This document shows, piece by piece, positions 15,985 to 47,797 of a stretch of DNA of 53,962 nucleotides (the stretch's first letter is position 1; each line of letters begins with the position of its first letter). The DNA lies in NCBI GenBank assembly GCA_035649355.1, contig DASRJS010000056.1, positions 1-53,962 of the forward strand, given 5' to 3'. Source of the stretch: Candidatus Polarisedimenticolia bacterium. GTDB lineage: Bacteria; Chloroflexota; Limnocylindria; Limnocylindrales; CSP1-4. Made by a program: the position numbers and the translations under genes. The notes beneath the pieces were generated by a model, which ran no database searches, was not told the DNA's origin, and saw nothing but the letters and a program-made list of their open reading frames with translations.

Positions 15985-16071
15985 CGAAGCCCGGCCATCG
16001 TAGAGGGTCGGGCGGCGTCGGACGCGGGCTACAATCCGCGCCGAACGAGATCGACCAGCAGGGGAGTGGTC

Positions 16072-20108: not shown

Positions 20109-20345
20109 GGCGATCAGCTGCTCCTCATGCGTTGCCGCGATTGTGCGTGAATTCCCCGACGTCTCGGAGTCGCATCCGCCAGGTCATCGCAGTGCGCCTG
20201 TCCCGTAACGAACTGAAACGCGGTTGAAACGTCGCGATCCGGGCCGCTCGGATCCGGCCCATGCGTGCAGGCGTAGGTTCAGGTATCGAACCCGTGCAGG
20301 GCGCCCGGCCCCGGCCGGCGCCTGTCGCCTAGGAGGACCCGCCCC

Positions 20346-22500: not shown

Positions 22501-22581
22501 TGGCGGCAGCGTACCGCGTCGCTCAGGCTCCGTGACGAACAGAGAGCGCCGGCGCGCGGCGGATCGAACGGCCCGTGAGCC

Positions 22582-28167: not shown

Positions 28168-28392
28168 ATGAGCACACGCCAGACGCTCGCAGAAGCGATG
28201 CACCTCCCAGGCGACAGCGACACGATGTCGTGGCTCCACGAGCATGGCGTCGCGGTCACGGATGAGGACACCATGAGTCGCGCGATCCACGATATCTACT
28301 GCGGGATCACCGCCGACCACCTCGAGCCGAACGAGAAGGACCGGAACCAGGCACGCGACATGATCGCGGCCCTGCAGAAGCACTCGACCTAG
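28168..28392 (+). CDS. Hypothetical small protein (74 aa)
   Basis: ATG 28168 follows GAGGAGGA (28156-28163). The composition is acidic and non-shadow-like. I recognise no domain. Confidence 0.45.
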   Translation: MSTRQTLAEAMHLPGDSDTMSWLHEHGVAVTDEDTMSRAIHDIYCGITADHLEPNEKDRNQARDMIAALQKHST

Positions 28393-28426: not shown

Positions 28427-29155
28427 CTACTCAGCCTGGCCGCGATCGTCGCCGCGGACCGTCTGACGGAGGGTGGTTGCGCGTGACCGGAGGTCGCGGA
28501 AGAAGTCCGTGTCCGTGATCTCGGACACGCGCTTGGCCTGGCGCGCCTGGTCGATCTCGATCCGCAGCTCTCGAACCTCGGCCTTGAGCCGCTCCTCGCG
28601 GGCCTTGACCTCGGCGGCCATCGTGGCGAAGCGCCGGGCGAGCACGCCGAGCGCGTCCGTGCGCGCGGCAACCTCGGCCAGCCCATCGGCGGCGAAGGTG
28701 CCGGCTTCGAGGGCCTCCGCGGCGCCCGTCACTCGCGACACCTGCTCGAGGTACTCGAGCTCGAGGTCCCGCAGCCGCTTCGCCGCAAGCGACGACTCCA
28801 GGCGCGCGCGGAGGATCGCGGGTTCGAACGGCTTCGTGAGGTAGTCCGTCGCGCCCATCTCAATGCAGCGCACGACGCTCTCGAGCTCGTCGACGCCCGA
28901 GATGATGATGACCGGGATATGGTCGAGCGCGGGATCGGCCTTGATCGCAGCCAGGGTGGCGTAGCCGTCGAGCTCGGGCATCACGATGTCGAGGAGCACG
29001 ACGTCGTACGGCTCCTCGCGGAGCCGGCCCAGGGCGGCCCGGCCGTCCGGAGCCTCGCTGACGTCGCGACCCTCAGCCTCCAGCGCCCGCCGCAGCAGCA
29101 TCCGATTGAGCCGCTCGTCGTCGACGACAAGGACCCGCCCGGCACCGTCGGTCAT
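28427..29155 (-). CDS. Response regulator: receiver domain plus a HAMP-like/coiled-coil C-terminal tail, with no DNA-binding domain
   Basis: Receiver motifs are VLVVDDE, the phospho-acceptor VVLLDIVMPELDG and DYLTKPF. The tail reads ...DALGVLARRFATMAAEVKAREERLKAEVRELRIEIDQARQAKRVSEITDTDFFRDLRSRA. ATG 29155 overlaps the Hpt stop (ATGA). Confidence 0.85.
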   Translation of the reverse strand: MTDGAGRVLVVDDERLNRMLLRRALEAEGRDVSEAPDGRAALGRLREEPYDVVLLDIVMPELDGYATLAAIKADPALDHIPVIIISGVDELESVVRCIEMGATDYLTKPFEPAILRARLESSLAAKRLRDLELEYLEQVSRVTGAAEALEAGTFAADGLAEVAARTDALGVLARRFATMAAEVKAREERLKAEVRELRIEIDQARQAKRVSEITDTDFFRDLRSRATTLRQTVRGDDRGQAE

Positions 29156-29514
29156 CGCGCCGCCTGCAGCGCGGCGAGCTCGGCTCGGACTCGATCGAAC
29201 TCCCGCGCCGCCTCGGCGACACGGTCAGCCGCCGCGTCCACGACTCCGCCGCGGGCGTCGGTCTCGAGGCTCCGGCACAGCTCGGCCAGCCGCTCCGCGC
29301 CCATGTTGGCGCTGTTGCTCTTGAGCGAGTGCGCGGGCCGGACGAGGTCCTCGACCGCGCCGCTTCCAGCAGCGGCGCGCATCGCGTCGAGCTGCACGAC
29401 CGCGTCCTCGAGGAAGGTCTGCACCAGCTCATCGAGGAACTCGGGATCGCCGCCGGTCATGTCGAGGAGACGATCGAGAGCGGCTGGGTCCACCGACCGA
29501 ACGTTGTCTGTCAC
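29152..29514 (-). CDS. Hpt (histidine phosphotransfer) domain protein
   Basis: The 120-aa four-helix-type sequence carries the phospho-His motif AHSLKSNSANMGA. GTG 29514 overlaps the kinase stop (GTGA). Confidence 0.85.
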   Translation of the reverse strand: MTDNVRSVDPAALDRLLDMTGGDPEFLDELVQTFLEDAVVQLDAMRAAAGSGAVEDLVRPAHSLKSNSANMGAERLAELCRSLETDARGGVVDAAADRVAEAAREFDRVRAELAALQAAR

Positions 29515-32500
29515 GCGCCGCCCTCCGTCGCGCCTGTCAGCGCCGGCGTCGCCGCGAGGGCCGCGGCCAGCAGGTCCGGCCGGATGGGCTTCGAGAGGTA
29601 GTCATTCATGCCCGCCGCAAGACACGTTTCCCGGTCGCCCTCCATCGCATTCGCGGTCATGGCGACGATCCTGACGGGACGCTCGGGCATCTGCTGGCGG
29701 ATCCGACGCGTCGCCTCGAGCCCGTCCATGTCCGGCATCTGGACGTCCATCAAGACGAGGTCGTAGGTCTGCCGCTCGAGCGCCTCGAGCACCTTGAACC
29801 CGTCAATTGCGAGGTCGGCCTCGTAGCCCATGCCCTTCAGGAGGCGCAGCGCGAGCTTCTGATTGACGGCGTTATCCTCCGCGAGCAGCACTCGAAGTGG
29901 ATGTCGAAGGCCAAGGTCGGCGTCCGCAACGAACTTCGTCGTGGCGGTCCTCGACCGACCGTCGCGTTCGCCCAGGACGCGGACCAGCATCTCGCGCAAC
30001 GCGGCCGGCTTGACGGGCTTGGCGAGCCACGCACCGGCGGATTCGGCCTCGTGCTCGCGATGTCCCAGCGAGGACACGATGATCACGCGCGGCGGGTCGT
30101 CGGGACGGGCTGCCCGGATCGCCGCGGCAAGCTCGATGCCGTCCAGCGCCGGCATCTGGAGATCGGTCAGCAGGACGTCGTAGTGACGCTGCGCGGCCAG
30201 GTCACGCGCCTCGGTCGGTGACGTCGTTGCGGTCACGTCGAGCTCCAGCCGCTCGAGGAGCGCGACGAGGATTCGCAGGTTCGTGGCGTTGTCGTCCACG
30301 GCCAACGCGGTGCGGCCGGCCAGCACCACCTCCGCAGCTCGAGCGCCGCTGCCGTCCCCTTCGGACTCGGGCGCCTGACTCTCGGGCAGACGGAGCGTCA
30401 ACGTGAATGTGCTTCCCTCGCCGGGCAACCCGCTGCTCTCGGCCACGAGGCTCCCGCCCATGAGCTCGGCCAGGCGACGGCTGATCGCGAGCCCGAGGCC
30501 GGTGCCGCCATAGCGGCGCGAGATCGACGCGTCGGCCTGGCTGAACGAGCGGAACAGCCGGTCCATTTGATCGCCCGGAATGCCGATCCCGGAGTCGGCG
30601 ATCGACAGCGACAGGTCCCAGCTCGGCGAGCCGCCGCCGCGAACACGCTGACCGCCGATGGCAACGCCGATCTCGCCGGCGTCTGTGAACTTCATGGCGT
30701 TCGACAGGAGGTTCAGCATGATCTGACGCAGCCGTCCGGCATCACCCATGAACCAGCGCGGCAGGTCCGGCTCGATCGAGTAGGTGAGCTCGAGGCCCTT
30801 GCCGGCGGCGATCGGCTCCACGACGTCAAGGGCGCCCTCGATCGTTGCCGCCAGATCGAAGCGGTGGATGTCGAGGTCCAGGCGACCAGCTTCGATCTTC
30901 GAGAAGTCGAGGATGTCGTTGATGATCGTGAGCAGTGCCTCGCCGGATGTGCGGATCGTCTCGGCGAAGTCGCGCTGCTCGTCATTGAGGTCCGTGTCCA
31001 CCAGCAGGCCGCTCATGCCGATGATCGCGTTCATCGGCGTCCGGATCTCGTGGCTCATCGACGCGAGGAACGTGCTCTTCGCCGCATTCGCCGCATCCGC
31101 CTCGCGGCGCGCCGCCTGGAGCTCTGTGATGTCGTGGTAGATCGCGTAGTAGCCGGTGTGGACGCCGTCGACGATCAGGGGCACGATCACGATCTCGACG
31201 TCGACGGCCGCGCCGTCCTTACGACGACGCTGCCCGATCAGCTGGGCTCGGCCGGTCTCGTCAGCCAGTCGCGTGGGCGCTTCGCCTTCATCGCGCTCTT
31301 CGGGCAGGAACAGGAGGTCGTAGATCGAGCGCCCGATCGCCTCCTCGGCGCGGTAGCCGAAGAGCCGGGCTGCTGCGGGGTTCCAGTCTGAGACGACCTC
31401 GTTTCGGTCCATCGTTACGATCGCCACCGGGCTGATCTCGATGAGCGCCTCGAGGTATTGCTTGCGGCGCCGGATCTCCGCAGCGGCCTCAACCTGCGCG
31501 GTGATGTCCAGCATGAAGCCCTGCACATGCATCGGCTTCCCGTCCTCATCTCGCACGATCCACGAGTCGTCACGAATCCAGACGATCCGACCATCGGCGG
31601 CGATCATCCGGTACTCGTAGGACGACTTCTGGTCGCCTCCGACGAGATTCGATCGCACCTCCCTGACGATCGCATCGCGGTCGTCGGGATGAATGACCTT
31701 CGTGAAGAAGGCCGGCTCGAGCCACTGTTCGATCGAGTAGCCGAACATCCCGACAATTCCGGGGCTGACGTACTTCGAGGTCGAGCTCTCATCCGGGTAG
31801 TCGGTGTAGATCGCGAGCGGCAGCTCCTCGACGAGCCGGCGGTATTGCTCCTCGCTCTCCTTCTGGGCAAGCACGAGGCGCGCGTTTTCGATGCCGACAC
31901 CGAGGCTCGAGGCGAGCGTCGACAGGAAGCGGCGATGGCCCTCGTCGAACGCACGCGGGTCGCTCGAGCCGATCGCGAAGACACCGATCGCGCGATCGCC
32001 CGACGGGATCGGCACGCCGAGGTACGACTCGGTGCCGCCAACGGCGTACGGCATGCCTTGCCGTGCCGCCTCGTCGGCGGACTGGATAAGGAGGGGCTTG
32101 TTCGTCCGGAGGATCTCGGTGGAAAGCGGGTCGCTGAGGAGCGAGCCCTCCATGGCTGAGTTCCGGATGCCGCCATCGATCCAGTACAGGAAGCGGAACT
32201 CGCCCGTCTTCGGGTCGAGGAGGCAGATCGACAGGCCGCGCACGCCGAGCGCCTCGACGGCCCGGTCGCCAACCGCCTCGACGACGCCCTGCAGGTCCCG
32301 CTGCGTGACGAGCGAGTTGCTGATCTCGTTGACGACCGCGAGCTCGGCGTTGCGCTGCGCTGTCTCGGAAAGGAGGCGCTTCGCTTCGTCGAAGAGCCGG
32401 GCGTTCTCGAGTGCGACGCCCATGCTCGAGGCGAGGGTCGACAGGAAGCGGACATGGCCCTCGTCGAACGCGTTCTTTTCGGTCGAACCGATGGCGAACA

Positions 32501-34001
32501 CACCGATCGCGCGATCGCCCGCTGGAATCGGGACGCCGAGGTAGGCCTCTGTGCCCCCGACCGCGAATGGCGTCCCCCGCGCGGCGGCCTCTTCCGCGGA
32601 CCTGAGGAGCAGCGGCTCCTTGGTCCTGAGGATCTGGGCGGAAAGAGGGTCGCCGAGGACCATGCCTTCGCGGCTCGAGTTCCGGACACCCTCGTCGATC
32701 CAGTACAGGAATCGGAGCTCGTCGGTCTTCGGGTCGATGAGGCAGATCGAGAGGCCGCGCACCCCCAGCGCCTCGACGGCCCGGTCGCCCACGGCCTCGA
32801 GGACGCCCTGCAGGTCGCGCTGCATGACGAGCGCGGTGCCGATTTCGTTGACGACCGCGAGCTCGGCGTTGCGCTGCTCGGTCTCGGCCAGGAGGCGCTT
32901 CGTATCGTCGAACAGCCGCGCGTTGTCGAGCGCCACCCCCATGCTCTGGGCGAGCGTCGAGAGCAGGCGAGCGTCTCCGCCGTCGAACGCGTGGCGCTCG
33001 AGGCTCTCGAGGTCGATGACGCCGATGACCTTGTCGGCGGCGAAGATCGGCACGCCAAGGAACGATTCGTGCTTCACGTCGCCGAGGAAGACCACGCCCT
33101 TGGTCTCGCTCTCCGCGAGCGTCCCGACGATGACGGGCCCGCGAGTCTCGTAGACCAGCCGCGTGAGGCCGGTGTCGATCGGCTGCGGGTCGCTGTAGAT
33201 CCGCCGGCCCTCCTCGAGCGCGAAGGCCCAGTCCGTCAGCCGAGCGGCCGGATCGAGCAGGCCGATCGAGATCGAACGGACGTCGAAGATGTCGCGGATC
33301 TTCCGGCCAACGAGCTCGAGGATGGCTTCGAAGTCGAGCTGCTTCGAGAGCGCGAGACCGATCTCGCTGATCACCGCGAGCTCGGCGTTCCGCTGGCGAA
33401 CCTCGTCGATGCCGCGGAACCGGATCAGCGCGGTGGCGACGTGCTGGCCCACGAAGTTGAGCAGTCGGAGATCGTCGTCCGAATAGCGCTCGCCAGCCCG
33501 ATAGGTCTGGACGACGAGCACGCCGAGCACGCGGCCCTCGGCCCTGAGCGGGATCCCAAGCCAGTCCTCGCCCTGCGACCCGACGAGCTGGATCTCGCCG
33601 GCCTGGATGAGCTGGTTCCAGCGTTCGACCGGCACGTGCTGGGGCTGGCCGGTTCGGAGGACGTAGCCGGTGAGGCCGCTGCCGAAGTGTGTGCCGAGCG
33701 GGTCCCACTGCGATGGCTCCGGCCAGTCGGTATCGACTGAATCGCGGTAGTACGGGAAGCTCAGCATGCTGCGCTCGTCGTCATAGAGTGCGATGTAGAA
33801 GTTCTCGCCGGACATCAAGCTCGAAACGATCTCGTGGATCGTCGCGTAGAAGGCGTCGATATCCGGGACGGCGCTGGCCGCGTCCGCGATCCGGTACAGC
33901 GCGGCCTGGACCTGCTGACTGCGCCTGAGGCGCTCCTGGTCGGCCTCGAGCTCGATGATCCTCTTCTGGGCGGCTTCGAACTCCGCCCGCGGATCGGTCA
34001 C
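29511..34001 (-). CDS. Cytoplasmic hybrid sensor histidine kinase: 4x GAF, 2x PAS, HisKA, HATPase_c, 2x receiver (1496 aa)
   Basis: No TM segment is seen. GAF-like modules lie at about aa 30-195, 205-360, 378-533 and 551-706. PAS domains lie at about aa 720-835 and 845-960. The H-box is SMSHEIRTPMN (His984). N/G boxes are LLSNAMKFT, DSGIGI and GGTGLGL. Receivers lie at about aa 1230-1345 (VLLTDLQMP) and 1368-1480 (LVLMDVQMPDMDG...SKP). GTG 34001 overlaps the upstream kinase stop (GTGA). Confidence 0.9.
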   Translation of the reverse strand: MTDPRAEFEAAQKRIIELEADQERLRRSQQVQAALYRIADAASAVPDIDAFYATIHEIVSSLMSGENFYIALYDDERSMLSFPYYRDSVDTDWPEPSQWDPLGTHFGSGLTGYVLRTGQPQHVPVERWNQLIQAGEIQLVGSQGEDWLGIPLRAEGRVLGVLVVQTYRAGERYSDDDLRLLNFVGQHVATALIRFRGIDEVRQRNAELAVISEIGLALSKQLDFEAILELVGRKIRDIFDVRSISIGLLDPAARLTDWAFALEEGRRIYSDPQPIDTGLTRLVYETRGPVIVGTLAESETKGVVFLGDVKHESFLGVPIFAADKVIGVIDLESLERHAFDGGDARLLSTLAQSMGVALDNARLFDDTKRLLAETEQRNAELAVVNEIGTALVMQRDLQGVLEAVGDRAVEALGVRGLSICLIDPKTDELRFLYWIDEGVRNSSREGMVLGDPLSAQILRTKEPLLLRSAEEAAARGTPFAVGGTEAYLGVPIPAGDRAIGVFAIGSTEKNAFDEGHVRFLSTLASSMGVALENARLFDEAKRLLSETAQRNAELAVVNEISNSLVTQRDLQGVVEAVGDRAVEALGVRGLSICLLDPKTGEFRFLYWIDGGIRNSAMEGSLLSDPLSTEILRTNKPLLIQSADEAARQGMPYAVGGTESYLGVPIPSGDRAIGVFAIGSSDPRAFDEGHRRFLSTLASSLGVGIENARLVLAQKESEEQYRRLVEELPLAIYTDYPDESSTSKYVSPGIVGMFGYSIEQWLEPAFFTKVIHPDDRDAIVREVRSNLVGGDQKSSYEYRMIAADGRIVWIRDDSWIVRDEDGKPMHVQGFMLDITAQVEAAAEIRRRKQYLEALIEISPVAIVTMDRNEVVSDWNPAAARLFGYRAEEAIGRSIYDLLFLPEERDEGEAPTRLADETGRAQLIGQRRRKDGAAVDVEIVIVPLIVDGVHTGYYAIYHDITELQAARREADAANAAKSTFLASMSHEIRTPMNAIIGMSGLLVDTDLNDEQRDFAETIRTSGEALLTIINDILDFSKIEAGRLDLDIHRFDLAATIEGALDVVEPIAAGKGLELTYSIEPDLPRWFMGDAGRLRQIMLNLLSNAMKFTDAGEIGVAIGGQRVRGGGSPSWDLSLSIADSGIGIPGDQMDRLFRSFSQADASISRRYGGTGLGLAISRRLAELMGGSLVAESSGLPGEGSTFTLTLRLPESQAPESEGDGSGARAAEVVLAGRTALAVDDNATNLRILVALLERLELDVTATTSPTEARDLAAQRHYDVLLTDLQMPALDGIELAAAIRAARPDDPPRVIIVSSLGHREHEAESAGAWLAKPVKPAALREMLVRVLGERDGRSRTATTKFVADADLGLRHPLRVLLAEDNAVNQKLALRLLKGMGYEADLAIDGFKVLEALERQTYDLVLMDVQMPDMDGLEATRRIRQQMPERPVRIVAMTANAMEGDRETCLAAGMNDYLSKPIRPDLLAAALAATPALTGATEGGA
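31869..32906 (-). repeat. Intragenic tandem duplication of a ~519-nt (173-aa) GAF module
   Basis: Protein units at aa ~366-538 and ~539-711 are identical at most positions (e.g. QRNAELAVVNEI..., AVGDRAVEALGVRGLSICL(I/L)DPKT, YLGVPIP.GDRAIGVFAIGS, FLSTLASS.GV..ENARL). The DNA is clearly alignable with a 519-nt period (e.g. ~32190-32320 vs ~32708-32835). Confidence 0.8.
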
Positions 34002-36700
34002 GCGGTCGCCGTCGTTTCATGCTGCGCCGCTGCCCCACCGAGCGCGGTCGCAAGCGCCTCGGGCCGGATCGGCTTGCTGAGGTAGTCGTCCATGCCGGCC
34101 GCGAGGCAGGCTTCGCGATCGCCTTCCATCGCATTCGCGGTCATGGCAATGATCCGCGGCCGATGGGCGGGTCCGGCCGCCCGGATCTGGCGCGTGGCTT
34201 CCAGGCCGTCCATCTCGGGCATCTGGACGTCCATGAGGATCACGTCGTATGGCGTGCGCTCAACCGCGGCGAGGGCCTCCAGTCCATTGACGGCCAGGTC
34301 CGCGCTGAGCCCCATCTTCTCGAGCAGGCGCATCGCCAGCTTCTGGTTCATCGCGTTGTCCTCGGCGAGGAGGATCCTCATCGGCCGACCACCGTTGACG
34401 GCCGCGGCAACCTGACGCCCGTCACCGGCGCTTGCGGCCTTGAGCGTTTCCGCCGCGGCGGCATCCGCGGCGAACGACAGGTCGAAGCGGCTGCCCTCGC
34501 CGGGAATCCCGGCACTCTCCGCCGTGAGCGAGCCGCCCATCAGCTCGGCCAGCCGCCGGCTGATCACGAGGCCGAGCCCGGTTCCGCCATAACGCCGCGC
34601 GATCGACGCGTCGGCCTGGCTGAACGACTGGAACAGGCGGCCCATCCCGCCGGGCGTGATGCCGATGCCGGTGTCCTTCACCGAGATGCTCACCTGCCAG
34701 CGGCCGTCGAGCGGCGTCGCCTCGATCGTCAGATCGATCCGCCCATGCTCCGTGAACTTGAGGGCGTTCGACAGGAGGTTGAGGACGATCTGCCGGATGC
34801 GGCCGGCATCACCGAGGAGCTGCGGCGGAGCCTCGCCGAGCTCGTGGATCTGCAGCTCGAGCCCTTTCGTCGCGGCGTTCGGACGGATCAGGTCAGCAGC
34901 CGCCCGGACGGTTCGACGGAGGTCGAATGGGACCGATTCGAGCTCGAATCGGCCGGCCTCGATCTTCGAGAAGTCGAGGATGTCATTGATGATCGTGAGC
35001 AGCGCCTCGCCCGAGATGCTGATGCTCTCGGCGTAGTCACGCTGCTCCTCGTTCAGTGTCGTGTCGAGGAGCAGGCCGCTCATGCCGATGACCGCGTTCA
35101 TCGGGGTCCGGATCTCGTGGCTCATCGCCGCCAGGAACGCGCTCTTCGCCTGGTTCGCCGAGTCCGCTTCGCGACGCGCGGCCTGCAGCTCCGTGATGTC
35201 GTGGTAGATCGCATAGAAGCCGATGTGCTCGCCGTCCACGATCAGCGGGACCATGACGATCTCGACGTCCATCGCCGATCCTTCCTTGCGCATCCGCTGG
35301 CTGATCAGGTGCGAGCGGCCGGTCTCCGTCGCCGCACGGCTGAGGTCGTGGCCTTCCTGACGAAGCTCGTCCGAGCCGAGGATGAGGTCATCGATCGTCT
35401 TGCCGATCGCCTCCGTCGGCGTGTAGCCGAAGAGCGTCGTCGCGGCCGGATTCCAGGCGGAAACGCGTTCATCGCGGTCCATCGTCACGATCGCGACCGG
35501 GCTGACCTCGACGAGCGCCTCGAAATACTGCTTCTGGCGACTGATCTCGGCCGTCCGCTCGACGACCCGTCGCTCGAGGGTCGCGACGTTCTCGCGCAGC
35601 TCGGCGGTCATGTCGTCGAACGCCGTGGCGAGCACGCCGACCTCGTCGTCCGAGCGGAAGCCTGACGTTGCCTCGAGATCGCCGCCCTGGACGCGGCTCG
35701 CGGTTGCAGCCAGCGACAGGATCGGCCGCGTGACGCGCCGCGCGACGACCCAGATGCCGGCCGCCAGGAGCAGCGCCGATGCGAGCCCCACGATGCCGAT
35801 GACGAGCGCGAGCTGGCGCGCCGAACCGAACGCCTCGTCCTGGCTCATCTCGGCGATCAGCCCGGCGTTCCGGTCCTCGATCCACGAGTAGACCCCGATG
35901 ACGGGCGTGCCGTCCGGGTTCGTGTAGAGGCCGCGGCCGCTCTGACCGGCAACGATCGCGTCCACGGCCGTCGAGTGAAGCGGCCCGGTCACGCCACCGG
36001 TTCCCTGGATGGGCACGCCGTCGGTGCCCACGAGGTAGGCCTGGCCAGTCGCCCCGAGCCCCGTGCGGTCCAGCACGATCCGATCGACCCGCTGGAGGCT
36101 GAGGTGTGCCGCGACGATCGCCACCCGCTGGCCCTTGCCGTCCTGGTCGAAGAGCGGTGTCGCGACAGTGATCGTCGGCCGTCCGGTCAGGCTCGAGCGA
36201 TAGGCGTTCTGGACGTTCGTGTGCGATGAACCGGTGATGAAGAAGTCTTCGTCGGCGAGCGAGAGCCCTTCGTGGTCGGCCAGCGTGGACATGCGGATCG
36301 TGCCGTCGAGGTCGAGGATCAGGATCTCCTCGGCATCGGCCGTCTGCGACACGACGGTCGCGAGGATCTCGCGGAGGCTCGCCTCGGCCGCCGTGCGAGC
36401 CGCGGCGCCGGATGTCGAGTCGAGGAACACGCGGGCGTCATCGCCGACGCCGGGCATGACCCCGACGAACACGACGTTCCGGCTCTGCTCGTCGATCCAG
36501 CGGTCGAGCGCGTCGGCTTTCAGACCGGCGACGGCGTCGAGGCGCTCGTAGACGGACGCCGTGAGGTCACCCGTCGCTCGCCAGTAGACGATGGCGCCGA
36601 CGACAAGAACGGTGATCGTCGAGAGCGCGAGGAAATAGCCGACGAGCCGGGCCCGGAGGCTGCGGCGGAATGGCCCGAGGACCCGGCTCGTGAGGCTCAT
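33998..36700 (-). CDS. Membrane hybrid sensor histidine kinase: TM, Cache-like extracytoplasmic domain, TM, HAMP, PAS, HisKA, HATPase_c, receiver
   Basis: ATG 36700 gives MSLTSRVLGPFRRSLRARLVGYFLALSTITVLVVGAIVYW. A ~255-aa extracytoplasmic region carries a Cache-like YLVGTDG segment. The second TM is LALVIGIVGLASALLLAAGIWVV. HAMP reads RPILSLAATASRVQGGDLE...DEVGVLATAFDDM. The H-box is AMSHEIRTPMN, and the receiver reads ILMDVQMPEMDG...SKP. The tracked start 36847 overlaps the upstream SBP gene and is Arg/Ser-rich. Confidence 0.9.
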   Translation of the reverse strand: MSLTSRVLGPFRRSLRARLVGYFLALSTITVLVVGAIVYWRATGDLTASVYERLDAVAGLKADALDRWIDEQSRNVVFVGVMPGVGDDARVFLDSTSGAAARTAAEASLREILATVVSQTADAEEILILDLDGTIRMSTLADHEGLSLADEDFFITGSSHTNVQNAYRSSLTGRPTITVATPLFDQDGKGQRVAIVAAHLSLQRVDRIVLDRTGLGATGQAYLVGTDGVPIQGTGGVTGPLHSTAVDAIVAGQSGRGLYTNPDGTPVIGVYSWIEDRNAGLIAEMSQDEAFGSARQLALVIGIVGLASALLLAAGIWVVARRVTRPILSLAATASRVQGGDLEATSGFRSDDEVGVLATAFDDMTAELRENVATLERRVVERTAEISRQKQYFEALVEVSPVAIVTMDRDERVSAWNPAATTLFGYTPTEAIGKTIDDLILGSDELRQEGHDLSRAATETGRSHLISQRMRKEGSAMDVEIVMVPLIVDGEHIGFYAIYHDITELQAARREADSANQAKSAFLAAMSHEIRTPMNAVIGMSGLLLDTTLNEEQRDYAESISISGEALLTIINDILDFSKIEAGRFELESVPFDLRRTVRAAADLIRPNAATKGLELQIHELGEAPPQLLGDAGRIRQIVLNLLSNALKFTEHGRIDLTIEATPLDGRWQVSISVKDTGIGITPGGMGRLFQSFSQADASIARRYGGTGLGLVISRRLAELMGGSLTAESAGIPGEGSRFDLSFAADAAAAETLKAASAGDGRQVAAAVNGGRPMRILLAEDNAMNQKLAMRLLEKMGLSADLAVNGLEALAAVERTPYDVILMDVQMPEMDGLEATRQIRAAGPAHRPRIIAMTANAMEGDREACLAAGMDDYLSKPIRPEALATALGGAAAQHETTATA

Positions 36701-36707
36701 CGGCGCT

Positions 36708-37646
36708 CTACGGCACCACCTGCCCGACCGCAGACAGGTCAAACGCTGCGGCCGGCGTCGTGTAGTCCGCGTCGAAGAACTGCAGCGAGAGCGCCTTGAG
36801 CTTGCCGTTCGCGTGGAGATCCTTGACCGCGGCGTCGATCGCCGCAAGGAAGGCCTTCGGCTCGAGCGTCAGGTCGCGATCGACGTAGCCCGTCTTCTGG
36901 GTGAAGTAGGCGACCTCCTCGAGCTCGCGTAGCGGATCGCCGTTCGCGATCGCCGCCCGGCCCACGGTCGCGCTGCACAGGAACGCGTCGATGTCTCCGG
37001 CAACGACGGCCTCGAGGCCCGGCACCTCGGTGTTGAACGTGACGATCACGGGATCGTCGACGAGCCAGACCATGTCGACGCCGGGCAGCTCGAGCTCTCG
37101 CTTGAGGTATGACTCGTGGGTGCAGCCGGCGCAGGACCCGATCTCCTTGCCGCTGAGCTCGGACGGCTTCGTGATCGCCGAATCCTCCCGGACGAAGAAC
37201 GACGCAGGCGTGGAGTAATACGGCTGCGTGACGTACAGCTTCTCCATCCGGCCGACCGTCAGCGCGCCGGACGCCCAGGCGACGTCGTAGCGATCGCCCC
37301 AGCTGCCCGCGATCATCGAATCGAATGGCGTCGCGACGAAGCACGGCTCAACGCCGAGCGCCGCGGCCACGAGCTTGCCGGTCTCCGCGTCGTAGCCCGA
37401 GATCTCCGGCGCCGTCATCTCGTTCGGCGCGCACTTCGAGCCGGCGAGACGCGTTGCACCCTCGACAGCGAACGACTGCGGGGCGTAGTCCGGATCGGTC
37501 CACAGGACAAGCGTCCCGCGCGCCTGGACCTGGGCCAGCTTGTCCGTCGAAGGATTGAGGCTCGGCGACTGCGAGGCGGCCGGGCCCGAGCAGGCCGCGA
37601 TGAGGACCGCGATCGCGGCGCCAGCGACGCGACGAGAGACGTTCAC
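36708..37646 (-). CDS. Family-3 (polar amino acid type) solute-binding lipoprotein, copy B
   Basis: GTG 37646 lies 8 nt after AGGAG. The lipobox signal is VNVSRRVAGAAIAVLIAACSG. The SBP_bac_3-like pattern is GTLVLWTDPDYAPQSF...GYDAETGKLVAAALGVEP. It is clearly paralogous to copy A. The tracked 528-aa ORF extension is rejected. Confidence 0.85.
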   Translation of the reverse strand: MNVSRRVAGAAIAVLIAACSGPAASQSPSLNPSTDKLAQVQARGTLVLWTDPDYAPQSFAVEGATRLAGSKCAPNEMTAPEISGYDAETGKLVAAALGVEPCFVATPFDSMIAGSWGDRYDVAWASGALTVGRMEKLYVTQPYYSTPASFFVREDSAITKPSELSGKEIGSCAGCTHESYLKRELELPGVDMVWLVDDPVIVTFNTEVPGLEAVVAGDIDAFLCSATVGRAAIANGDPLRELEEVAYFTQKTGYVDRDLTLEPKAFLAAIDAAVKDLHANGKLKALSLQFFDADYTTPAAAFDLSAVGQVVP

Positions 37647-37657
37647 GTGATGCACTC

Positions 37658-38638
37658 CTACTCGACGTGCTGTTCGAGCAGGTCGAGATCGAATTCGCCT
37701 GCCGGGGTGGTGTAATCGGTCTTGAACCATTCCATCGAGAGCGCCTTCATTCGGCCGTCCGCGTGCGCCGCCTCGATGATCGCGTTGACGCGGTCGTAGA
37801 ACGCCTTCGTCGATAGCCCCGATCCCTTGTCCACGAAGCCAGTCGGGTACATCGAGAAGGCAGGCTCTTCGAGAATTCGGAGGGCGAGGCCCTGGGCGAT
37901 CGCCTCCTTCGCGACCGGCTCGGCGACGAGGAACGCGTCGATCTTGCCCGCGGCGAGCTCTTCGATGCCCGGAAACTCGGTCTCGTAACCGGCGAGGACC
38001 GGGTCCTTGACCTTCTGGATCAGCTCGACGCCCGGAATCACGAGCGTGCCCTGCAGGTAGGCCTCGACCGTGCAGCTCGTGCACGTCCCGATCGTCTTCC
38101 CGTCCAGATCCGATGGAACCTGCGCCGTCGAGTCCTTCGGGACGAGGAAGACCTGCGGGATGTAGTAGTACGGCTGCGTCATCCAGAGGACTTCCATCCG
38201 CCGGGCGTTGATCGCGCCGGAGGCGTAGGCGATGTCCCAGCGGTCGCCCCAGTTGCCTGCGGTGACCTCGCCGAACGTCGGCGACACGAAGCACGGTTCA
38301 ACGCCGAGCTCCTTCGCGACAAGCTTGTGCGTCTCGATGTCGAAGCCGGTGACCTCGGCCCCGGTCATTTGGTTGCTGAGGCACTTCGTCGGGTTCGTTC
38401 GCGTTGCGCCCTCGACCTTGACCGACTGCGGCGGGTAGTCCAGCTCTGCGTAGCCCACGAGCGTGCCGCGAGCCAGAATCTGGGCAAGCTTGTCGGTCGT
38501 CGGATTGGCACTCGGGGTCGGCGAGGCGCCACCCGGCGTCGCTCCACAGCCGACCAGGATCGCGATGACGGCGGCGAGCGCGCCGAGTCTGCCCACGCGG
38601 CGAGCGCCTCGCGCAGCCCTCCCGTTCGTCCCGTCCAA
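37658..38638 (-). CDS. Family-3 (polar amino acid type) solute-binding lipoprotein, copy A
   Basis: The start is TTG 38638, downstream of GGGAGAGGGAGG. The lipobox signal is LGALAAVIAILVGCG. The pattern is GTLVGYAELDYPPQSV...GFDIETHKLVAKELGVEP...GKIDAFLVAEPVAKEAI. Confidence 0.85.
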   Translation of the reverse strand: MDGTNGRAARGARRVGRLGALAAVIAILVGCGATPGGASPTPSANPTTDKLAQILARGTLVGYAELDYPPQSVKVEGATRTNPTKCLSNQMTGAEVTGFDIETHKLVAKELGVEPCFVSPTFGEVTAGNWGDRWDIAYASGAINARRMEVLWMTQPYYYIPQVFLVPKDSTAQVPSDLDGKTIGTCTSCTVEAYLQGTLVIPGVELIQKVKDPVLAGYETEFPGIEELAAGKIDAFLVAEPVAKEAIAQGLALRILEEPAFSMYPTGFVDKGSGLSTKAFYDRVNAIIEAAHADGRMKALSMEWFKTDYTTPAGEFDLDLLEQHVE

Positions 38639-38658
38639 CTCCGGCCTCCCTCTCCCCG

Positions 38659-40899
38659 CTACGTGCTGACTGAGCCTGGTGACATCGAAAGTGTCAGCGT
38701 GGTCGGATTGTCAGCGGCCGGGACGATGAGCTCGTCGACCGTGCCAACGAAACGAATGGCAGGCTCCGCACCAACGGCGACGTCGATCGCGCCGTTTGTC
38801 GCGGTGGAGCTGCCGTCCGGCGTCACCGCGTGGAGCCACAGCGTCAGCTCTGGGGCCACGGACGGCGGCAGGTCCACCCGCAGGCTCCGCAATCCCGTGG
38901 GCGACGCGACGAGGCCAATGGGTCCACTGAGGGTCCGCTCACCCGCGAAATCCGACGCCCGAATCGCGGTCGGAACCGCCTTGCCGGCGGAAACCACGGA
39001 GACGACGCCCAGCTCCGGCGGACCGGACTCGACGCGATACTCCACGACGGTGCGCGGCGTGAACGCGCCGCGACGCACGCTGACGATCGTGAGGACGACG
39101 ATCGACACGCCGATCCCGATGGCTGCGGCTCTCTCCAGCGGACCCTCCCAGATCCACAGCCCGAAGACGACGACGCCGGCCAGGAAGAGGCCGCCCACGA
39201 CGAGGGCGACGATGGGCCAGCCGATCGGCCCGAGCACCAGCGCCGGGACGCGCTCGCCGCGCCGCCGCGCCGCGACGAGGATGAGCATCGGAAAGACGCC
39301 CCCGAGCAACGGCAGCGTCAGCGCGCCGATGATCGCGAGCGGGTCGGTGAACGAGATTGAGCCGGACGTCAGGAGGACGACCACGATGGCGAAGATCACG
39401 ACGAGCGGAGCGCCCCGGAAGAGAAACTCCGCGAGGTGGCCGCCGCGATGGAGGGCACCGCGCAGCGTCGACGAGGCGTGGGCCAGCTCGCCCATCTGGT
39501 TGTAGATCCCGAACGCGACGTACGTCGAGCCGAGGCCGACCGTCAGCAGGAGGTAGATCGTGCCGATCACGTCTGCCGCGGGACCGGCGCGCTCGGCAAG
39601 CGGCGTCAGTGCGGTGCCCTCGTAGCCGGACAGGGCGTCGCCCCCCACCGCGGTCGTCACCGCGACGACGAACAGCACGTACAGGGCCATCGCGCTGAGC
39701 ATTGCGGCGACGTTGCCGGCGAGGAACTGCCGGCCGCCGGGATCGCGGGTCAGCACGACCTTCGCGGCATGGCCGGCTGAGGTGTGGCCGAAGTAGGCGA
39801 CGAGCGCGACGCCGAAGATCAGCTCGAGGACCGATGCGTTCAGCGCAAGCTCGATCGGCGGGTGGGTGGGGGCGGGGGCCCGGACCGACATCGCGATGAG
39901 CGAGAGCACGATCAGCAGGACCAGGTTGACCAGCCCGATCATGACCGCGAGGGCGACCGTCACGTTGAGCGAGTCACGCCAGATCAGCAGGGCATTGACC
40001 GCAAACAGTGCTGCCGCGCAGGCAACGACCGGAAGGCCCGTCGCCGCCGCGATCGTCGTGCCGAAGCCGACCAGCAGGATGCAGAAGCCAACGGCATCGA
40101 GGGCGAAGAGGGCCGGCATCGCGACGGCGTTTCCAGGTCGGCCGAGGTAGTCGCCGATGAGGCGGCCGAAGAACGCCGTGCCGTAGCGCATGTTCCCGTT
40201 GCGGGTGATCGCTTCGACGAGCGCAGCGATCGTCAGCGTGTTGACGAGGCCGAACACGACGAGCAGCACGGTCGCGCCAACGGGTCCGAAGCCCGCGAAG
40301 GCGATCGGCAGCGCCAGGACACCGCCGCCGACGGTCTCGGTCAGCGTCAGCGCATAGGCGAGCCAGAACGGCGGCAGCGACTCGATCCGCCTCGAGAGCG
40401 ACGCGCGCAGCCAGCGCAGGCGCTCGCGGCGGGGCAGCGGAGCAACCCCGAGATCCGTGATCACCCGGCCCGTCTGTCGTTGAAAGGCATCCATGACCTC
40501 CGGGTCCTCGGCGCCGAGCGCCGCCCGGATCGCGCGCGCCTGCGGCGGCAGGCCGTACTTCTCGTCGATCCGGCCGATGAGCGCCGCCCGCAGGCCGGGG
40601 TCGGGCGGGACGAGGTCGCGCCATTCGCTGGCGTGCCGGTCGATGTCCTGGATCGTGGCCTTCGCCGGCACCGCGCGGCCCTCAGCCAATGCGCCGAGGA
40701 ACAGCTGCTCGCGCTCCGCGACCGTCCGCTCGGTCTCCCAGCGCGCCATCGCCTTGCGGGCGCGGGCCGCCAGCAGTGCGCTCCGATTCTCGATCGCGAA
40801 GAGCAGCGTGCTGGCGCGCCGGGCCGGCATTCCGGCCATGACGCCTTCGCGTGTGAACGCCGGGGGCGGCGAGGGTGGTCGCTCGTCCTCAGGCGGCAT
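38659..40899 (-). CDS. APC-superfamily (amino-acid/auxin- or aromatic-amino-acid-permease-like) membrane protein with a ~170-aa cytoplasmic N-domain and a ~150-aa C-terminal soluble domain
   Basis: It has about 11-12 TM helices. The first carries the permease-type Gly-rich motif TETVGGGVLALPIAFAGFG. The N-terminal region is helical and Arg/Ala-rich. The C-terminal tail after the last TM is beta-rich (TVVEYRVESGPPELGVVSVV...TLTLSMSPGSVST). ATG 40899 overlaps the ParA-like gene by 11 nt. An alternative ATG 40839 has a GAAGG SD-like element. Confidence 0.6.
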   Translation of the reverse strand: MPPEDERPPSPPPAFTREGVMAGMPARRASTLLFAIENRSALLAARARKAMARWETERTVAEREQLFLGALAEGRAVPAKATIQDIDRHASEWRDLVPPDPGLRAALIGRIDEKYGLPPQARAIRAALGAEDPEVMDAFQRQTGRVITDLGVAPLPRRERLRWLRASLSRRIESLPPFWLAYALTLTETVGGGVLALPIAFAGFGPVGATVLLVVFGLVNTLTIAALVEAITRNGNMRYGTAFFGRLIGDYLGRPGNAVAMPALFALDAVGFCILLVGFGTTIAAATGLPVVACAAALFAVNALLIWRDSLNVTVALAVMIGLVNLVLLIVLSLIAMSVRAPAPTHPPIELALNASVLELIFGVALVAYFGHTSAGHAAKVVLTRDPGGRQFLAGNVAAMLSAMALYVLFVVAVTTAVGGDALSGYEGTALTPLAERAGPAADVIGTIYLLLTVGLGSTYVAFGIYNQMGELAHASSTLRGALHRGGHLAEFLFRGAPLVVIFAIVVVLLTSGSISFTDPLAIIGALTLPLLGGVFPMLILVAARRRGERVPALVLGPIGWPIVALVVGGLFLAGVVVFGLWIWEGPLERAAAIGIGVSIVVLTIVSVRRGAFTPRTVVEYRVESGPPELGVVSVVSAGKAVPTAIRASDFAGERTLSGPIGLVASPTGLRSLRVDLPPSVAPELTLWLHAVTPDGSSTATNGAIDVAVGAEPAIRFVGTVDELIVPAADNPTTLTLSMSPGSVST

Positions 40900-41653
40900 C
40901 GTCGACCAGGCTGGTCGCGATCTGGGCGTAGAGGCCGGACAGCTCGTGGTCCGGGTATCGAGCGACGAAGATGCCCTCGCTCGCGAGACGCATCAGCTCG
41001 TCGGAGTGGGGGAGCACGGCCGCCACCGGGCAGCCGTAGGTCTCCGCGACCCGTTTCGCGACCGCGTCGCGATCGAGGCTGTCGGGGCACTTGTTCACGG
41101 CGATCCGGATCCGGGGCACCTGGAGCTCCTGGGCGACGCGCGCGGTGATCCCCGTGCCCTCGTAGTCCTGGCGGTCCGGGCGCATGACGATCAGCAGGCT
41201 GTCGGACAGCACCAGCGAGAGGAGCGTCTCCTCGTTGAGACCCGGGTGGGTGTCGATGAGGAGCACATCCAGCGAAAGCTCATCAACGAGCTGGCGCAGG
41301 CCCTCGGTGAGCCGTTGCGCGTCATAGCCCTCGCGCAGGATTCGGGCGATCTCGCCCGGCTGCATGCTCGACGGGATCAGGTGGATCCGGCCCGGCACGT
41401 CGATCCCGATCCCGCCCGTGACGTCCTGGGCGACCTCGGCGATGGCACGGCCGTGCCACAGGAAGTCGTTCAGCGAGGCGGTGACCTCGTCGCCGGCAAG
41501 CCCGAACAGGACGTGGATGCCGGGCGACTGGATATCCGTGTCGATGACGCCGACGCGCTTCCCGCGTTGGGCGTAGATGACAGCGAGATTCGCCGTGGTG
41601 TTCGACTTTCCGGTTCCACCACGGAACGAGTGGACGCTGAGAATCGTCGCCAC
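40889..41653 (-). CDS. ParA/MinD-family P-loop ATPase
   Basis: The deviant Walker A is ILSVHSFRGGTGKSNTTANLA, with Arg where the signature Lys usually sits. Walker A' reads VGVIDTDIQ and Walker B reads VLLIDTHPG. The length is 254 aa. Confidence 0.85.
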   Translation of the reverse strand: MATILSVHSFRGGTGKSNTTANLAVIYAQRGKRVGVIDTDIQSPGIHVLFGLAGDEVTASLNDFLWHGRAIAEVAQDVTGGIGIDVPGRIHLIPSSMQPGEIARILREGYDAQRLTEGLRQLVDELSLDVLLIDTHPGLNEETLLSLVLSDSLLIVMRPDRQDYEGTGITARVAQELQVPRIRIAVNKCPDSLDRDAVAKRVAETYGCPVAAVLPHSDELMRLASEGIFVARYPDHELSGLYAQIATSLVDDAA

Positions 41654-41838
41654 GGCCCCTCCGGCCCCGCCAGCCCACTCCGCTCGGTCGAATCAACTCG
41701 GCAAGGCCATCGCCGCGCGGACAGAGCGACGAGTGCGGCCGAACCGGTTGCGCACTCGCGCAGTCCCTCGTATGCGCGAACCTCTCGGCTCCGGCGGGCA
41801 GCATCATACGTGACGCATCAGCGTCGGCGGCCGAAAAC

Positions 41839-43113
41839 GTGACACGGACTGGCCCGCCCAGACCTCACACTCTGCGGGTGAATCGCTATCTCGCCCTGCT
41901 CCGGAAGCGCGACTTCGCGCTGCTCTGGACCGGCGCCACGGTGTCCGCGCTCGGCGACGGGATGTCGTTCGTCGCGCTGCTGTGGCTGCTCATCGAGCGC
42001 GGCGGCACACCGACGGAGGTCGGCTGGCTCGCGGCCATCCACACGGCGCCGGTGATCATCGGCGGCATCGCCGCCGGCGTCATCCTCGACCAGTACGACC
42101 CGCGCAAGGTCATTGCGGCGGACAACGTGATCCGTGGCCTGGCCGTCGCGAGCGTTCCGATCGCGTCCGCGCTCGGCGTGCTCTCTACGGCCCAGCTCTT
42201 CGTCGTCGCCGCGATCTACGGCCTGCTCTTCATGACGAGCGCGGCCGGCATCCCGAGCATGATCACGCGGCTCGTCCCGAAGGAGGACCTGACGACGGCG
42301 AATGCGATGGAGTCCTTGTCGTTCGGCATCTCGGGGCTCATCGGACCCGGGCTCGCGGGCCTGATCATCGCCGGCTTCGATGCGCCCCTCGTGCTCGCGA
42401 TCGATGCGGTCACCTACTTCGTGTTCGTCGGCTGCCTCCTCGGGATCCGCGAGGGCCGGGGAGCGGGCGTCGACCAGGTCGACCGGTCGGCGGTTCCGCC
42501 GTCCACGTCGCGCGGCCTCGGGCCGGCCATCCGGTTCATCCTCGGCGCGCCGGCGATCGTGGCGATCACGCTGTTCTACATGTCGGTGAACATCGCGGGC
42601 GGCATCGTCACGGTTGTCATCCCGCTCTACGTGCGCGACGTTCTCCATGCGGGTTCCGAGACGTTCGGCCTCCTGCTCAGCGTCCTGACGGCGGGCGACC
42701 TCGCCGGACTGCTCATCGTCGGCGCCGTCAACTGGCGCTGGCCGCTGGGGCGCTCGATCGCGTGGTCACTGCTCTCGAGCGGCCTGGTCTTGCTCCTCTG
42801 GTTGCTCGAGCCGCCGGTCGTCGCGCTCTGCGTCATCCTTGCGGTCTGGGGCGCGCTGTCCTCGTCACTGACGCCGTGGGCGCAGACGATCCGGATGCGC
42901 CTCATCCCGCCAGAGATGCGCGGCCGCGTGTTCGCACTCCTCCGAACGAGCATGCAGTCGACGCGCCCGATCGGCGCGGTCGTCGCCGGTCTCCTCCTCG
43001 CGAACGGCAGCCTGACGATCGCGATCGTGGCGATGGCGCTGCTGTTCGGGATCCCGGGCCTGATCGGAGTCTGGCTGCCGGCGCTGGGTCGCGGACCGAC
43101 CGCGGAGCCCTAG
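41839..43113 (+). CDS. MFS transporter (EntS/MFS_3-like)
   Basis: The start is GTG 41839. The N-terminal motif is RDFALLWTGATVSALGDGMSFVALLWLL. It has about 12 TM helices. Confidence 0.85.
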   Translation: MTRTGPPRPHTLRVNRYLALLRKRDFALLWTGATVSALGDGMSFVALLWLLIERGGTPTEVGWLAAIHTAPVIIGGIAAGVILDQYDPRKVIAADNVIRGLAVASVPIASALGVLSTAQLFVVAAIYGLLFMTSAAGIPSMITRLVPKEDLTTANAMESLSFGISGLIGPGLAGLIIAGFDAPLVLAIDAVTYFVFVGCLLGIREGRGAGVDQVDRSAVPPSTSRGLGPAIRFILGAPAIVAITLFYMSVNIAGGIVTVVIPLYVRDVLHAGSETFGLLLSVLTAGDLAGLLIVGAVNWRWPLGRSIAWSLLSSGLVLLLWLLEPPVVALCVILAVWGALSSSLTPWAQTIRMRLIPPEMRGRVFALLRTSMQSTRPIGAVVAGLLLANGSLTIAIVAMALLFGIPGLIGVWLPALGRGPTAEP

Positions 43114-47042: not shown

Positions 47043-47106
47043 GGCATCTCCTTTCCCGCGATTCTGACCCAATCGGCGCCCGATCGCCGCAGCCTAGGAT
47101 TCGGCG

Positions 47107-47772: not shown

Positions 47773-47797
47773 ACGCGCTCGAGAGAGGCGCCCGCGC

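Follow-up and report, generated by a model that had tools for sequence, protein, structure and literature searches.

The window analyzed here, positions 1–53,962 of contig DASRJS010000056.1 (GCA_035649355.1), carries a cluster of eight minus-strand genes (28427–41653) encoding a MinD-like ATPase, a permease-like protein, two solute-binding proteins (SBP1 and SBP2), two hybrid kinases (HK1 and HK2), an Hpt protein, and a receiver protein that ends in a helical domain, hereafter referred to as CT. The cluster appears to be a conserved and apparently undescribed two- or one-component pathway with a protein–protein output, and we consider it slightly better than an even bet that the terminal output of this pathway is the posttranslational control of a membrane carrier, exerted through CT on the ATPase–permease pair. 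An earlier note on this DNA had regarded the gene combination as undescribed and its output as other than transcriptional, and both points agree with our observations, as our literature searches yielded no account of the combination and no DNA-binding domain accompanies the cluster. Beyond genomic association and structure prediction, everything that is said below about function is inferred.

The CT domain and its genomic partners

The receiver gene (28427–29155) had been taken for an output-less receiver. Its N-terminal half is a canonical REC domain (28796–29140, residues 6–120; Pfam Response_reg, 106.8 bits) with the expected DD, D(IVMP), S, and K(PF) motifs, but the C-terminal half (28442–28780, residues ~126–238) turned out to be a conserved helical domain of ~110 aa, CT, characterized by a HAMP-AS2-like motif (R-x-D-A-L-G-x-L-A-R-x-F-x-x-M-A-x-E-V), a long helix, and then the signature IEID...V-x-EIT-x-TD(F/Y)F. 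CT has no significant match in Pfam, NCBIfam, or the PDB, the best Pfam entries being PspA_IM30 (E = 0.012) and HalX (E = 8.3). In the AlphaFold2 (AF2) model of the receiver protein, whose mean predicted local distance difference test score (pLDDT) is 86 and reaches 89–97 over residues 121–210, helices are predicted at 112–150 (alpha-5 of REC, prolonged without a break), 156–163, 168–214 (47 residues), and 217–238; Foldseek matched this REC–CT model to receiver domains only, among them CheY, RR468, and PleD for the REC part. The likeness of CT to HAMP is a weak one, limited to 21 columns around the AS2 motif in a profile comparison (hhalign, probability 36%), and the Pfam HAMP model reaches sub-threshold scores of 20–26 bits within the CT of four homologues, with no stretch individually passing the E-value threshold, and does not match the CT of the window.

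An exhaustive search of 1.84 billion representative proteins with a CT hidden Markov model (HMM) returned 2,639 clusters at E ≤ 0.001, 1,333 of them at E ≤ 1e-10, and the CT match is C-terminal in every one of the 2,639; this search superseded a word-index search with CT alone, which had yielded 155 candidates, mostly fragments. Among the 111 full-length top matches, the N-terminal partners of CT comprise REC (49), HAMP (40), HisKA (28), GAF (16), cNMP_binding (10), dCache (7), PAS (6), and WD40 (2), arranged in architectures as different as REC-CT, HisKA-x-REC-CT, 4HB/CHASE3-TM-HAMP-CT, multi-GAF-CT, PAS-PAS-CT, cNMP-CT, and hybrid kinases ending in REC-CT (TM, transmembrane segment), and several of these proteins consist of a sensor domain and CT and nothing more. 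Because it is a conserved C-terminal module placed behind such diverse sensor and receiver domains, CT is best read as an output domain. It counts thousands of members that neither Pfam nor NCBIfam names, and a name for it would make for better annotation of the many proteins currently listed as “response regulator” or “hypothetical.”

Two apparent fusions involving CT were set aside. An ATPase–CT fusion (P0126; 156 aa, with ATPase residues 1–46 followed by CT, on a 1678-nt Logan contig) looks like a deletion or a misassembly or chimera, and may correspond to the deletion of everything between the first and the last gene of a cluster. The 977-aa “permease-REC-CT” protein of L027 is a frameshift artifact, with an apparently out-of-frame Arg/Pro/Gly-rich stretch between its parts. 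More generally, many genes in the MFD long-read metagenome-assembled genomes (MAGs) L027, L051, L054, and L055 are broken into tblastn pieces or fused out of frame, and such apparent indel noise can mimic fusions or pseudogenes.

With regard to the genes that accompany CT, we scanned the GTDB species representatives with a permease alignment as the seed and obtained 55 loci, in which the proteins and domains of the window were then searched by tblastn. All 55 belong to MAGs or genomes of uncultured isolates, mostly from Chloroflexota (Limnocylindria/Limnocylindrales, with some Anaerolineales and Caldilineaceae), a few being binned as Actinomycetota. The ATPase is found in 46 of the 49 permease loci that have upstream sequence, where it usually abuts the permease, and CT is found in 31 of the 32 that have at least 8 kb on both sides. 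An assumption-free clustering of the open reading frames (ORFs) of the related loci recovered the same families, namely the permease (51), the ATPase (44), REC-CT (29), hybrid kinases (26), family-3 SBPs (18), Hpt (9, an undercount for so short a gene), family-5 SBPs (7), and 4HB/CHASE3-TM-HAMP-CT sensors (7), and no other recurrent family, be it subunits of ATP-binding cassette (ABC) transporters, che genes, or CheW-like adaptors. The association also holds when it is approached from its other members. Of the 80 loci kept in a metagenome census seeded with CT, 36 show an ATPase or a permease, and 23 have the gene order REC-CT, ATPase, permease, with CT followed immediately by the start of the ATPase gene; 11 loci extend at least 3 kb to either side, and 8 of these contain the ATPase–permease pair. 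Two contexts located through ATPase homologues run from the ATPase by way of the permease, the kinase, and Hpt to the receiver, and the HK1-HK2-Hpt-receiver order of the window recurs on L056, a metagenome contig of 9 kb with a CT 99% identical to that of the window. Since the permease-, CT-, and ATPase-seeded censuses each give the same neighborhood, the cluster does behave as one conserved unit, as had been proposed, and its synteny, far from being confined to a single genome, extends to 55 GTDB loci and to metagenome loci.

The boundaries of this unit are, however, narrower than the eight genes first thought to form an integrated whole, as what is conserved is a core of CT and the permease, usually with the ATPase. 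A variant devoid of any kinase (L020 and six loci like it) has, in this order, the ATPase, the permease, a family-5 SBP, and a 4HB/CHASE3-TM-HAMP-CT membrane sensor. In the minimal variant, L050, carried by a complete MAG chromosome (CP070764.1), 8 nt separate the end of a cNMP_binding-CT gene from the downstream gene of a full-length permease that retains its N-terminal domain, and no ATPase lies within 10 kb, from which it follows that the most basic pairing is that of a sensor-CT protein with the permease and that the ATPase is a nearly, not strictly, universal partner. A second, stand-alone cNMP-binding protein and a DegV-family gene are also encoded just upstream in L050 (7331–7714 and 9211–9978). 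Some MAGs harbor two or three paralogous permease systems, some of them in tandem, each with its own CT protein and sensors (L014, L015, L027/L043, L024/L049/L052), which implies a pairing specificity of CT with its own permease or ATPase. As cores driven by HAMP, GAF, or cNMP-binding domains exist in relatives, the phosphorelay of the window can be viewed as one of several interchangeable inputs; on the gene content of these loci, every input to the core can be exchanged, from the SBPs and both kinds of kinase (Cache and GAF) up to the phosphorelay as a whole.

A skeptical view of these associations would hold that CT is a generic dimerization or coiled-coil tail, that the receiver is a phosphate sink or has other partners, and that the ATPase and the permease form a separate, merely cotranscribed uptake system. 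CT is purely helical and bears a HAMP-like motif, its fragments are labeled in source annotations as PspA or RecN-like coiled coils, and three of the 11 well-flanked CT loci (L082, L112, and L128) have neither an ATPase nor a permease nearby, the cNMP-CT protein of L112 adjoining uvrB and L128 encoding a HisKA-x-REC-CT protein; some CT proteins may thus be orphans, have other partners, or act in trans. Yet CT, with ~14–19 invariant positions and identities of 53–88% among the listed homologues and 48–80% in the GTDB loci, against 38–63% for the permease across related loci, is constrained far beyond what is expected of a generic coiled coil; it is the sole nonsensor part of many proteins; and its linkage to the pair is reciprocal and persists through the complete replacement of the input modules. 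We therefore regard a generic tail as improbable.

The ATPase–permease pair as candidate target

The ATPase (40889–41653; 254 aa) belongs to the ParA/MinD family (Pfam ParA/CbiA/AAA_31, with a ParA score of 64 bits over its full length), and its stop codon overlaps the permease start by 11 nt. Its closest solved structures are archaeal MinD proteins (1hyq and 1g3q), to which it aligns from end to end. The motifs HSFRGGTGKSN, DTDIQSPGIH, and IDTHPG occur unchanged in all 37 sequences compared, and RPDxQDYEGT is nearly invariant. The deviant Walker A consensus of ParA/MinD ATPases reads xKGGxxGK[ST]; here, an arginine stands in place of the signature lysine (F-R-G-G-T-G-K-S) in all 37 sequences, and the P-loop Lys-Ser is present. 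At least 8,000 related clusters were detected, the best 120 being 72–100% identical to the ATPase, and across related loci, the ATPase (64–87% identity) is more conserved than the permease. Its last 14 residues are poorly conserved, with no obvious or conserved C-terminal amphipathic membrane-targeting helix. The Joint Genome Institute (JGI) annotates its homologues as “septum site-determining protein MinD.” Two other roles were considered and ruled out, namely that of an Fe-S carrier (Mrp/NBP35), as there is no CxxC motif, and that of a BY-kinase, as there is no C-terminal Tyr cluster.

The permease-like protein (38659–40899; 746 aa) combines a core of 12 TM helices with two additional domains, an N-terminal helical domain (40375–40899, residues 1–175) and a C-terminal beta-sandwich (38662–39069, residues 611–746), the TM core itself (39070–40374) spanning residues 176–610. 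It matches Pfam Aa_trans (28.8 bits against a cutoff of 25.6), and JGI labels its homologues “amino acid permease.” The AF2 model (mean pLDDT 77) comprises a helical N-domain (17–173, with residues 80–175 helical at pLDDT 78–92), a 12-helix core (177–609), and an 11-strand beta-sandwich (616–739). The Foldseek comparison, which is dominated by the TM core, ranks the AAAP auxin carriers LAX3 and AUX1 first, followed by BasC, ApcT, AdiC, and LAT transporters, with KimA also present; LAX3, AUX1, BasC, ApcT, and AdiC are matched at a probability of 1.00, with a target-normalized TM-score of up to 0.70. In agreement with an APC/LeuT fold, the model predicts helix breaks at 189–192 (TM1) and 370–374 (TM6), and the alignment places invariant residues precisely there, TETVGGG-x-LALP at the TM1 break and FGHTSAG at the TM6 break. 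These breaks are where LeuT-fold carriers bind their substrate, and the ligand site is thus apparently under selection.

The two additional domains amount to 310 extra residues, and the near-full-length ones among the 546 detectable homologues are almost all ~745 aa long. Neither domain has a significant sequence match in Pfam, NCBIfam, or the PDB; the N-domain motif G-x-P-A-R-R-A-S-T-L-L-F-A-I-E is kept across 18 diverse homologues. The basic clusters, including AARRRGER after TM10 and RRGAF after TM12, all fall on the cytoplasmic side of a 12-TM, N-in topology, and both extra domains are accordingly predicted to be cytoplasmic. With the C-domain on the cytoplasmic and not the extracytoplasmic side, its contact with an SBP, one of the pairings that the earlier note had put up for screening, becomes unlikely.

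What the permease does in the pathway depends on the direction in which information flows. As CT always occupies the C-terminus behind sensors or receivers, information most likely flows into the ATPase–permease pair, and the permease, which had been counted among the ligand-handling components, is more likely an effector or target than a ligand-handling co-sensor. The opposite direction was nonetheless considered. In such a scheme, the permease, the SBPs, and the Cache domain would all be inputs, with the permease as a trigger co-sensor, the ATPase would position the complex as ParC and PpfA do, and an output-less receiver would act by its localization. The presence of a ParA/MinD-family ATPase in a signaling operon and the lack of any DNA-binding or enzymatic output speak for it, LysP–CadC and DctA–DcuS provide precedents for transporters as established co-sensors, and the conserved ligand-site region of the permease may point to a transceptor role. 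Still, we find it unlikely, as CT also terminates proteins that contain only HAMP, GAF, or cNMP-binding domains, which marks CT as the output and its conserved neighbors as the targets, and as L050 keeps CT and the permease without the ATPase. That the ATPase positions arrays is likewise unsupported, with no che genes or CheW-like adaptors recurring in related loci, archaeal MinD as its closest solved relatives, and neither ParC nor PpfA among its PDB matches.

ParC/ParP of Vibrio and PpfA/TlpT of Rhodobacter do share with the cluster the association of a ParA/MinD ATPase with signaling genes and the expectation of a dedicated partner domain between the ATPase and its client. The cluster departs from them by the absence of che or CheW-like genes, both in the window and as recurrent neighbors in relatives, by its RGGTGKS motif instead of KGGxGKT, and by the constant neighbor of its ATPase, a permease, when published lists of ParA/MinD cargoes name no transporter (PMC10241942), a point that does not decide between the positioning of a sensory complex and the control of a carrier.

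Another way to account for the pair is that the ATPase energizes the carrier, as in an ArsAB-like pump that CT proteins would switch on and off. ArsA–ArsB likewise unites a SIMIBI-class ATPase, related to MinD and NifH, with a polytopic protein of the secondary-carrier type. In line with this precedent, the ATPase and permease genes share 11 nt in the window and lie side by side in most loci, the catalytic motifs of the ATPase are invariant and its identity across loci exceeds that of the permease, and the two dedicated cytoplasmic domains predicted for the permease could dock an ATPase dimer. However, ArsA is a tandem-domain, metalloid-activated protein, ArsB is not APC-fold, and neither a two-component input nor a CT-like regulator belongs to that system, whereas the ATPase of the cluster is a single-domain protein of the MinD type and its carrier is APC-fold; the ArsA model is absent from the 25 best NCBIfam matches listed for the ATPase. 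We know of no APC-fold carrier that is ATP-driven, and the L050 lineage keeps a full-length permease and CT with no adjacent ATPase, which suggests that the carrier probably works without it. A pump is hence assigned a low probability.

Other systems come closer to a regulated carrier, the reading that we favor. SLC38A9 is a member of the Aa_trans family whose N-terminal cytosolic domain binds a pair of P-loop NTPases, the Rag GTPases, and in SLC38A9–Rag as in KimA/c-di-AMP, GlnK–AmtB, and LysP–CadC, an APC-fold or related carrier is bound by a regulator or a nucleotide at cytoplasmic domains. By comparison, the N- and C-domains of the permease bear no sequence relationship to these proteins, the regulator would be a MinD-type ATPase together with CT, and signaling would run toward the carrier. 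BcsQ–BcsE–BcsA also brings together a MinD-like ATPase, a polytopic membrane machine, and a second-messenger-sensing regulator; its client is a glycosyltransferase and that of the cluster a carrier, and the BcsQ models score below cutoff on the ATPase (18 bits in Pfam, 36 bits in NCBIfam). ArsAB, BcsQ, SLC38A9–Rag, KimA, and GlnK–AmtB are thus functional analogies for the cluster, not families to which it belongs.

Input modules and a proposed signaling route

Upstream of the kinases, SBP1 (37658–38638) and SBP2 (36708–37646) are paralogues of 50% identity that both match Pfam SBP_bac_3. SBP1 has a hydrophobic segment at residues 14–40 with a lipobox-like LVGC, and SBP2 an N-terminal hydrophobic segment with a lipobox-like IAAC; their start codons are ambiguous (TTG at 38638 or GTG at 38596 for SBP1, GTG at 37646 or 37655 for SBP2). 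SBP2 lies directly upstream of the Cache kinase HK1, and an SBP2-type gene occupies the same position in the closest relatives. A binding protein directly upstream of a membrane sensor is in fact a recurrent feature of the related loci, where it belongs to family 3 in 18 cases and to family 5 in 7. No ABC partner genes for these binding proteins recur across the 55 loci, and no ABC_tran or BPD_transp match was found among the scanned ORFs of the window, which also encode no DNA-binding output and no che gene, an absence already remarked upon in the earlier note and extended here to recurrent genes in relatives. A co-sensor role fits the SBPs because they lack an ABC partner and stand directly upstream of a membrane sensor, and the fact that two unrelated SBP families fill the same slot with no ABC genes nearby lends further support to the idea, first raised in that note, that they assist a kinase.

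The most conventional explanation would be that of ordinary uptake, in which the SBPs serve an ABC importer encoded elsewhere, the permease is nothing more than an amino-acid permease, the ATPase acts in cell division or partition as a MinD/ParA, and the kinases control transcription by way of an unlinked regulator. The JGI labels of the permease and the ATPase agree with it. It is already disfavored, and to our eyes very improbable, given an arrangement conserved in 55 genomes and many metagenome contigs at permease identities of 38–63%, the 310 extra residues that the permease devotes to two conserved domains, the family-specific Walker A variant, the lack of ABC genes in related loci, and SBP1 and SBP2 scores that are 4–5-fold under the cutoffs of the NCBIfam amino-acid uptake SBP models.

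HK1 (33998–36700) has the Pfam architecture TM-dCache_1-TM-HAMP-PAS-HisKA-HATPase_c-REC, with TM segments at residues 17–43 and 293–322, and HK2 (29511–34001) is a cytoplasmic kinase with no TM segment, made of four GAF, two PAS, one HisKA, one HATPase_c, and two REC domains. In both, HisKA, HATPase_c, and REC score above the Pfam cutoffs, and the H-box SHEIRTPMN appears in the translations. Hpt (29152–29514; 120 aa; Pfam Hpt, 55.8 bits) bears the motif AHSLKSNSANMG, with AHSLKS, and the order Hpt→REC-CT is kept in related loci. Pfam domains and motifs together bear out the earlier claim of a full H1-D1-H2-D2 set, in that all of its components are present with canonical motifs, phosphotransfer itself being predicted. 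HK1 and HK2 are 57% identical over 513 aa (PAS-HisKA-HATPase-REC), and the REC of HK1 is 71% identical to REC2 of HK2, which points to a local duplication after which the sensor part was exchanged; as their transmitter halves are paralogous, two inputs converging on one Hpt would fit. The kinase set nevertheless varies across relatives, the closest of which have the Cache kinase only and others the GAF kinase only; HK2-type kinases occur in only some related loci, and Cache and GAF domains are fused in L038, L040, L041, L044, and L045. Beside these phosphorelays, HisKA-~100 aa-REC-CT proteins of 400–440 aa without HATPase_c form a large class (L090, L103, L128; P0187, P0188, P0194, P0204) and follow a hybrid kinase without an Hpt gene where their context is visible; their HisKA-like module may be a Spo0B-like phosphotransfer step that replaces Hpt.

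As for the ligand, the motif R-x-W-Y/F marks amino-acid-binding dCache_1 domains and was not found in the ectodomain of HK1 (residues 44–292); a dCache without it would fit ligand delivery by the SBPs better than direct binding. LuxP/LuxQ–LuxU–LuxO and TorT/TorS–TorR likewise feature a binding protein beside a membrane hybrid kinase without an ABC transporter, an Hpt step, and a terminal receiver, and the nearest named kinases in NCBIfam are TorS, LuxQ, and BarA, all below cutoff. The cluster is distinguished from these systems by its family-3 SBPs (family 5 in the sister variant), its dCache sensor, its extra GAF/PAS kinase, and a terminal regulator that carries CT instead of a DNA-binding or sigma-54 domain.

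On this basis, we propose that SBP1 and SBP2 could signal the presence of an amino-acid-like solute outside the cell to HK1 through its dCache ectodomain, that HK2 would add cytoplasmic cues through its GAF and PAS domains, and that both kinases would feed the same Hpt, which would in turn phosphorylate the receiver. Phosphorylation could then be passed along the continuous alpha-5/CT helix and alter the packing or dimerization of CT, which would dock on the permease (at its cytoplasmic domains), on the ATPase dimer, or on both. The MinD-like ATPase would, in this scheme, be a permease-bound, ATP-dependent switch that sets the activity of the permease, whether transport or ligand-dependent signaling, and the relatives would drive the same CT–ATPase–permease core by HAMP, GAF, or cNMP-binding sensors.

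Most two-component systems have transcription factors, cyclases, or motor switches as their outputs. There is a substantial chance that the CT–ATPase–carrier module represents a new output class. On the fullest form of this proposal, to which we give a probability somewhat short of even, CT would combine with the MinD-like ATPase (RGGTGKS) and the 12-TM protein of APC fold into a hitherto unrecognized output module, through which a phosphorelay, or a HAMP, GAF, or cNMP sensor, directly gates a secondary carrier or transceptor by means of an ATP-dependent switch of the MinD type. If it were true, REC, HAMP, GAF, and cNMP-binding modules would act, with CT as their output domain, on a carrier and its MinD-like partner, opening a new route from signals to an immediate change in solute flux; the ParA/MinD family would gain its first transporter client, beyond DNA, the divisome, organelles, flagella, and receptor arrays; and the module would be, by analogy only, a bacterial counterpart of SLC38A9–Rag. 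Chloroflexota from soil and groundwater, namely Limnocylindria and related lineages, harbor the system in abundance; they form a major uncultured group, for whose nutrient acquisition it may matter.

Several observations temper this proposal. The link between CT and the ATPase–permease pair is one of guilt by association, and 3 of the 11 well-flanked CT loci have no pair nearby. The homologues all come from uncultured MAGs, many of them on short contigs. The Aa_trans match is a weak one, just over its cutoff, and transport by the permease is accordingly putative, while the arginine at the signature-lysine position could alter the dimer-dependent cycle of the ATPase. On the input side, docking of the SBPs on HK1 is deduced from gene order and from the lack of ABC genes within 10 kb, and an ABC importer for them may sit elsewhere in the genome.

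Transcription unit and neighboring genes

The eight minus-strand genes, their coordinates, their domains, and their junctions as given in the earlier note were all reproduced exactly by ORF calls, Pfam searches, and recomputed junctions. From the ATPase to the receiver, successive genes are separated by −11, +20, +11, +7, −4 (GTGA), −4 (GTGA), and −4 (ATGA) nt. The G+C content of the window is 68–70%, and third-position G+C is high in all eight ORFs of the cluster, as in genuine genes. Internal promoters or terminators that would split the cluster, which that note had named as evidence against a single unit, show no excess over shuffled sequence, as the terminator-like and promoter-like matches within the cluster do not exceed the shuffle expectation; scans for Rfam families, tRNAs, promoters, and terminators returned nothing relevant. 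The cluster is probably transcribed from the divergent intergenic region of 185 nt (41654–41838), which borders a gene of the major facilitator superfamily (MFS); that a sigma-70-type consensus was not detected is uninformative for this phylum. At the other end, the cluster faces a convergent plus-strand ORF (28168–28392; 74 aa) with a gene-like codon bias and no Pfam match.

The window also encodes three paralogous MFS_3 transporters (“transmembrane secretion effector,” EntS-like), at 21223–22581 (minus strand), 26834–28087 (plus strand), and 41839–43113 (plus strand), two of which directly flank the cluster; MFS_3 genes do not recur in the related loci. Two further plus-strand ORFs, at 15523–17175 (550 aa) and 20277–21245 (322 aa), show a gene-like codon bias and have no Pfam match. 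Finally, an AMP-binding enzyme is fused to a phosphopantetheine carrier and an acyltransferase in the 866-aa product of a plus-strand gene at 47699–50299, which is of the Aas-like type (lysophospholipid acylation), with a metallo-beta-lactamase-fold gene just upstream (47098–47772) and glyoxalase and GMC oxidoreductase genes beyond.

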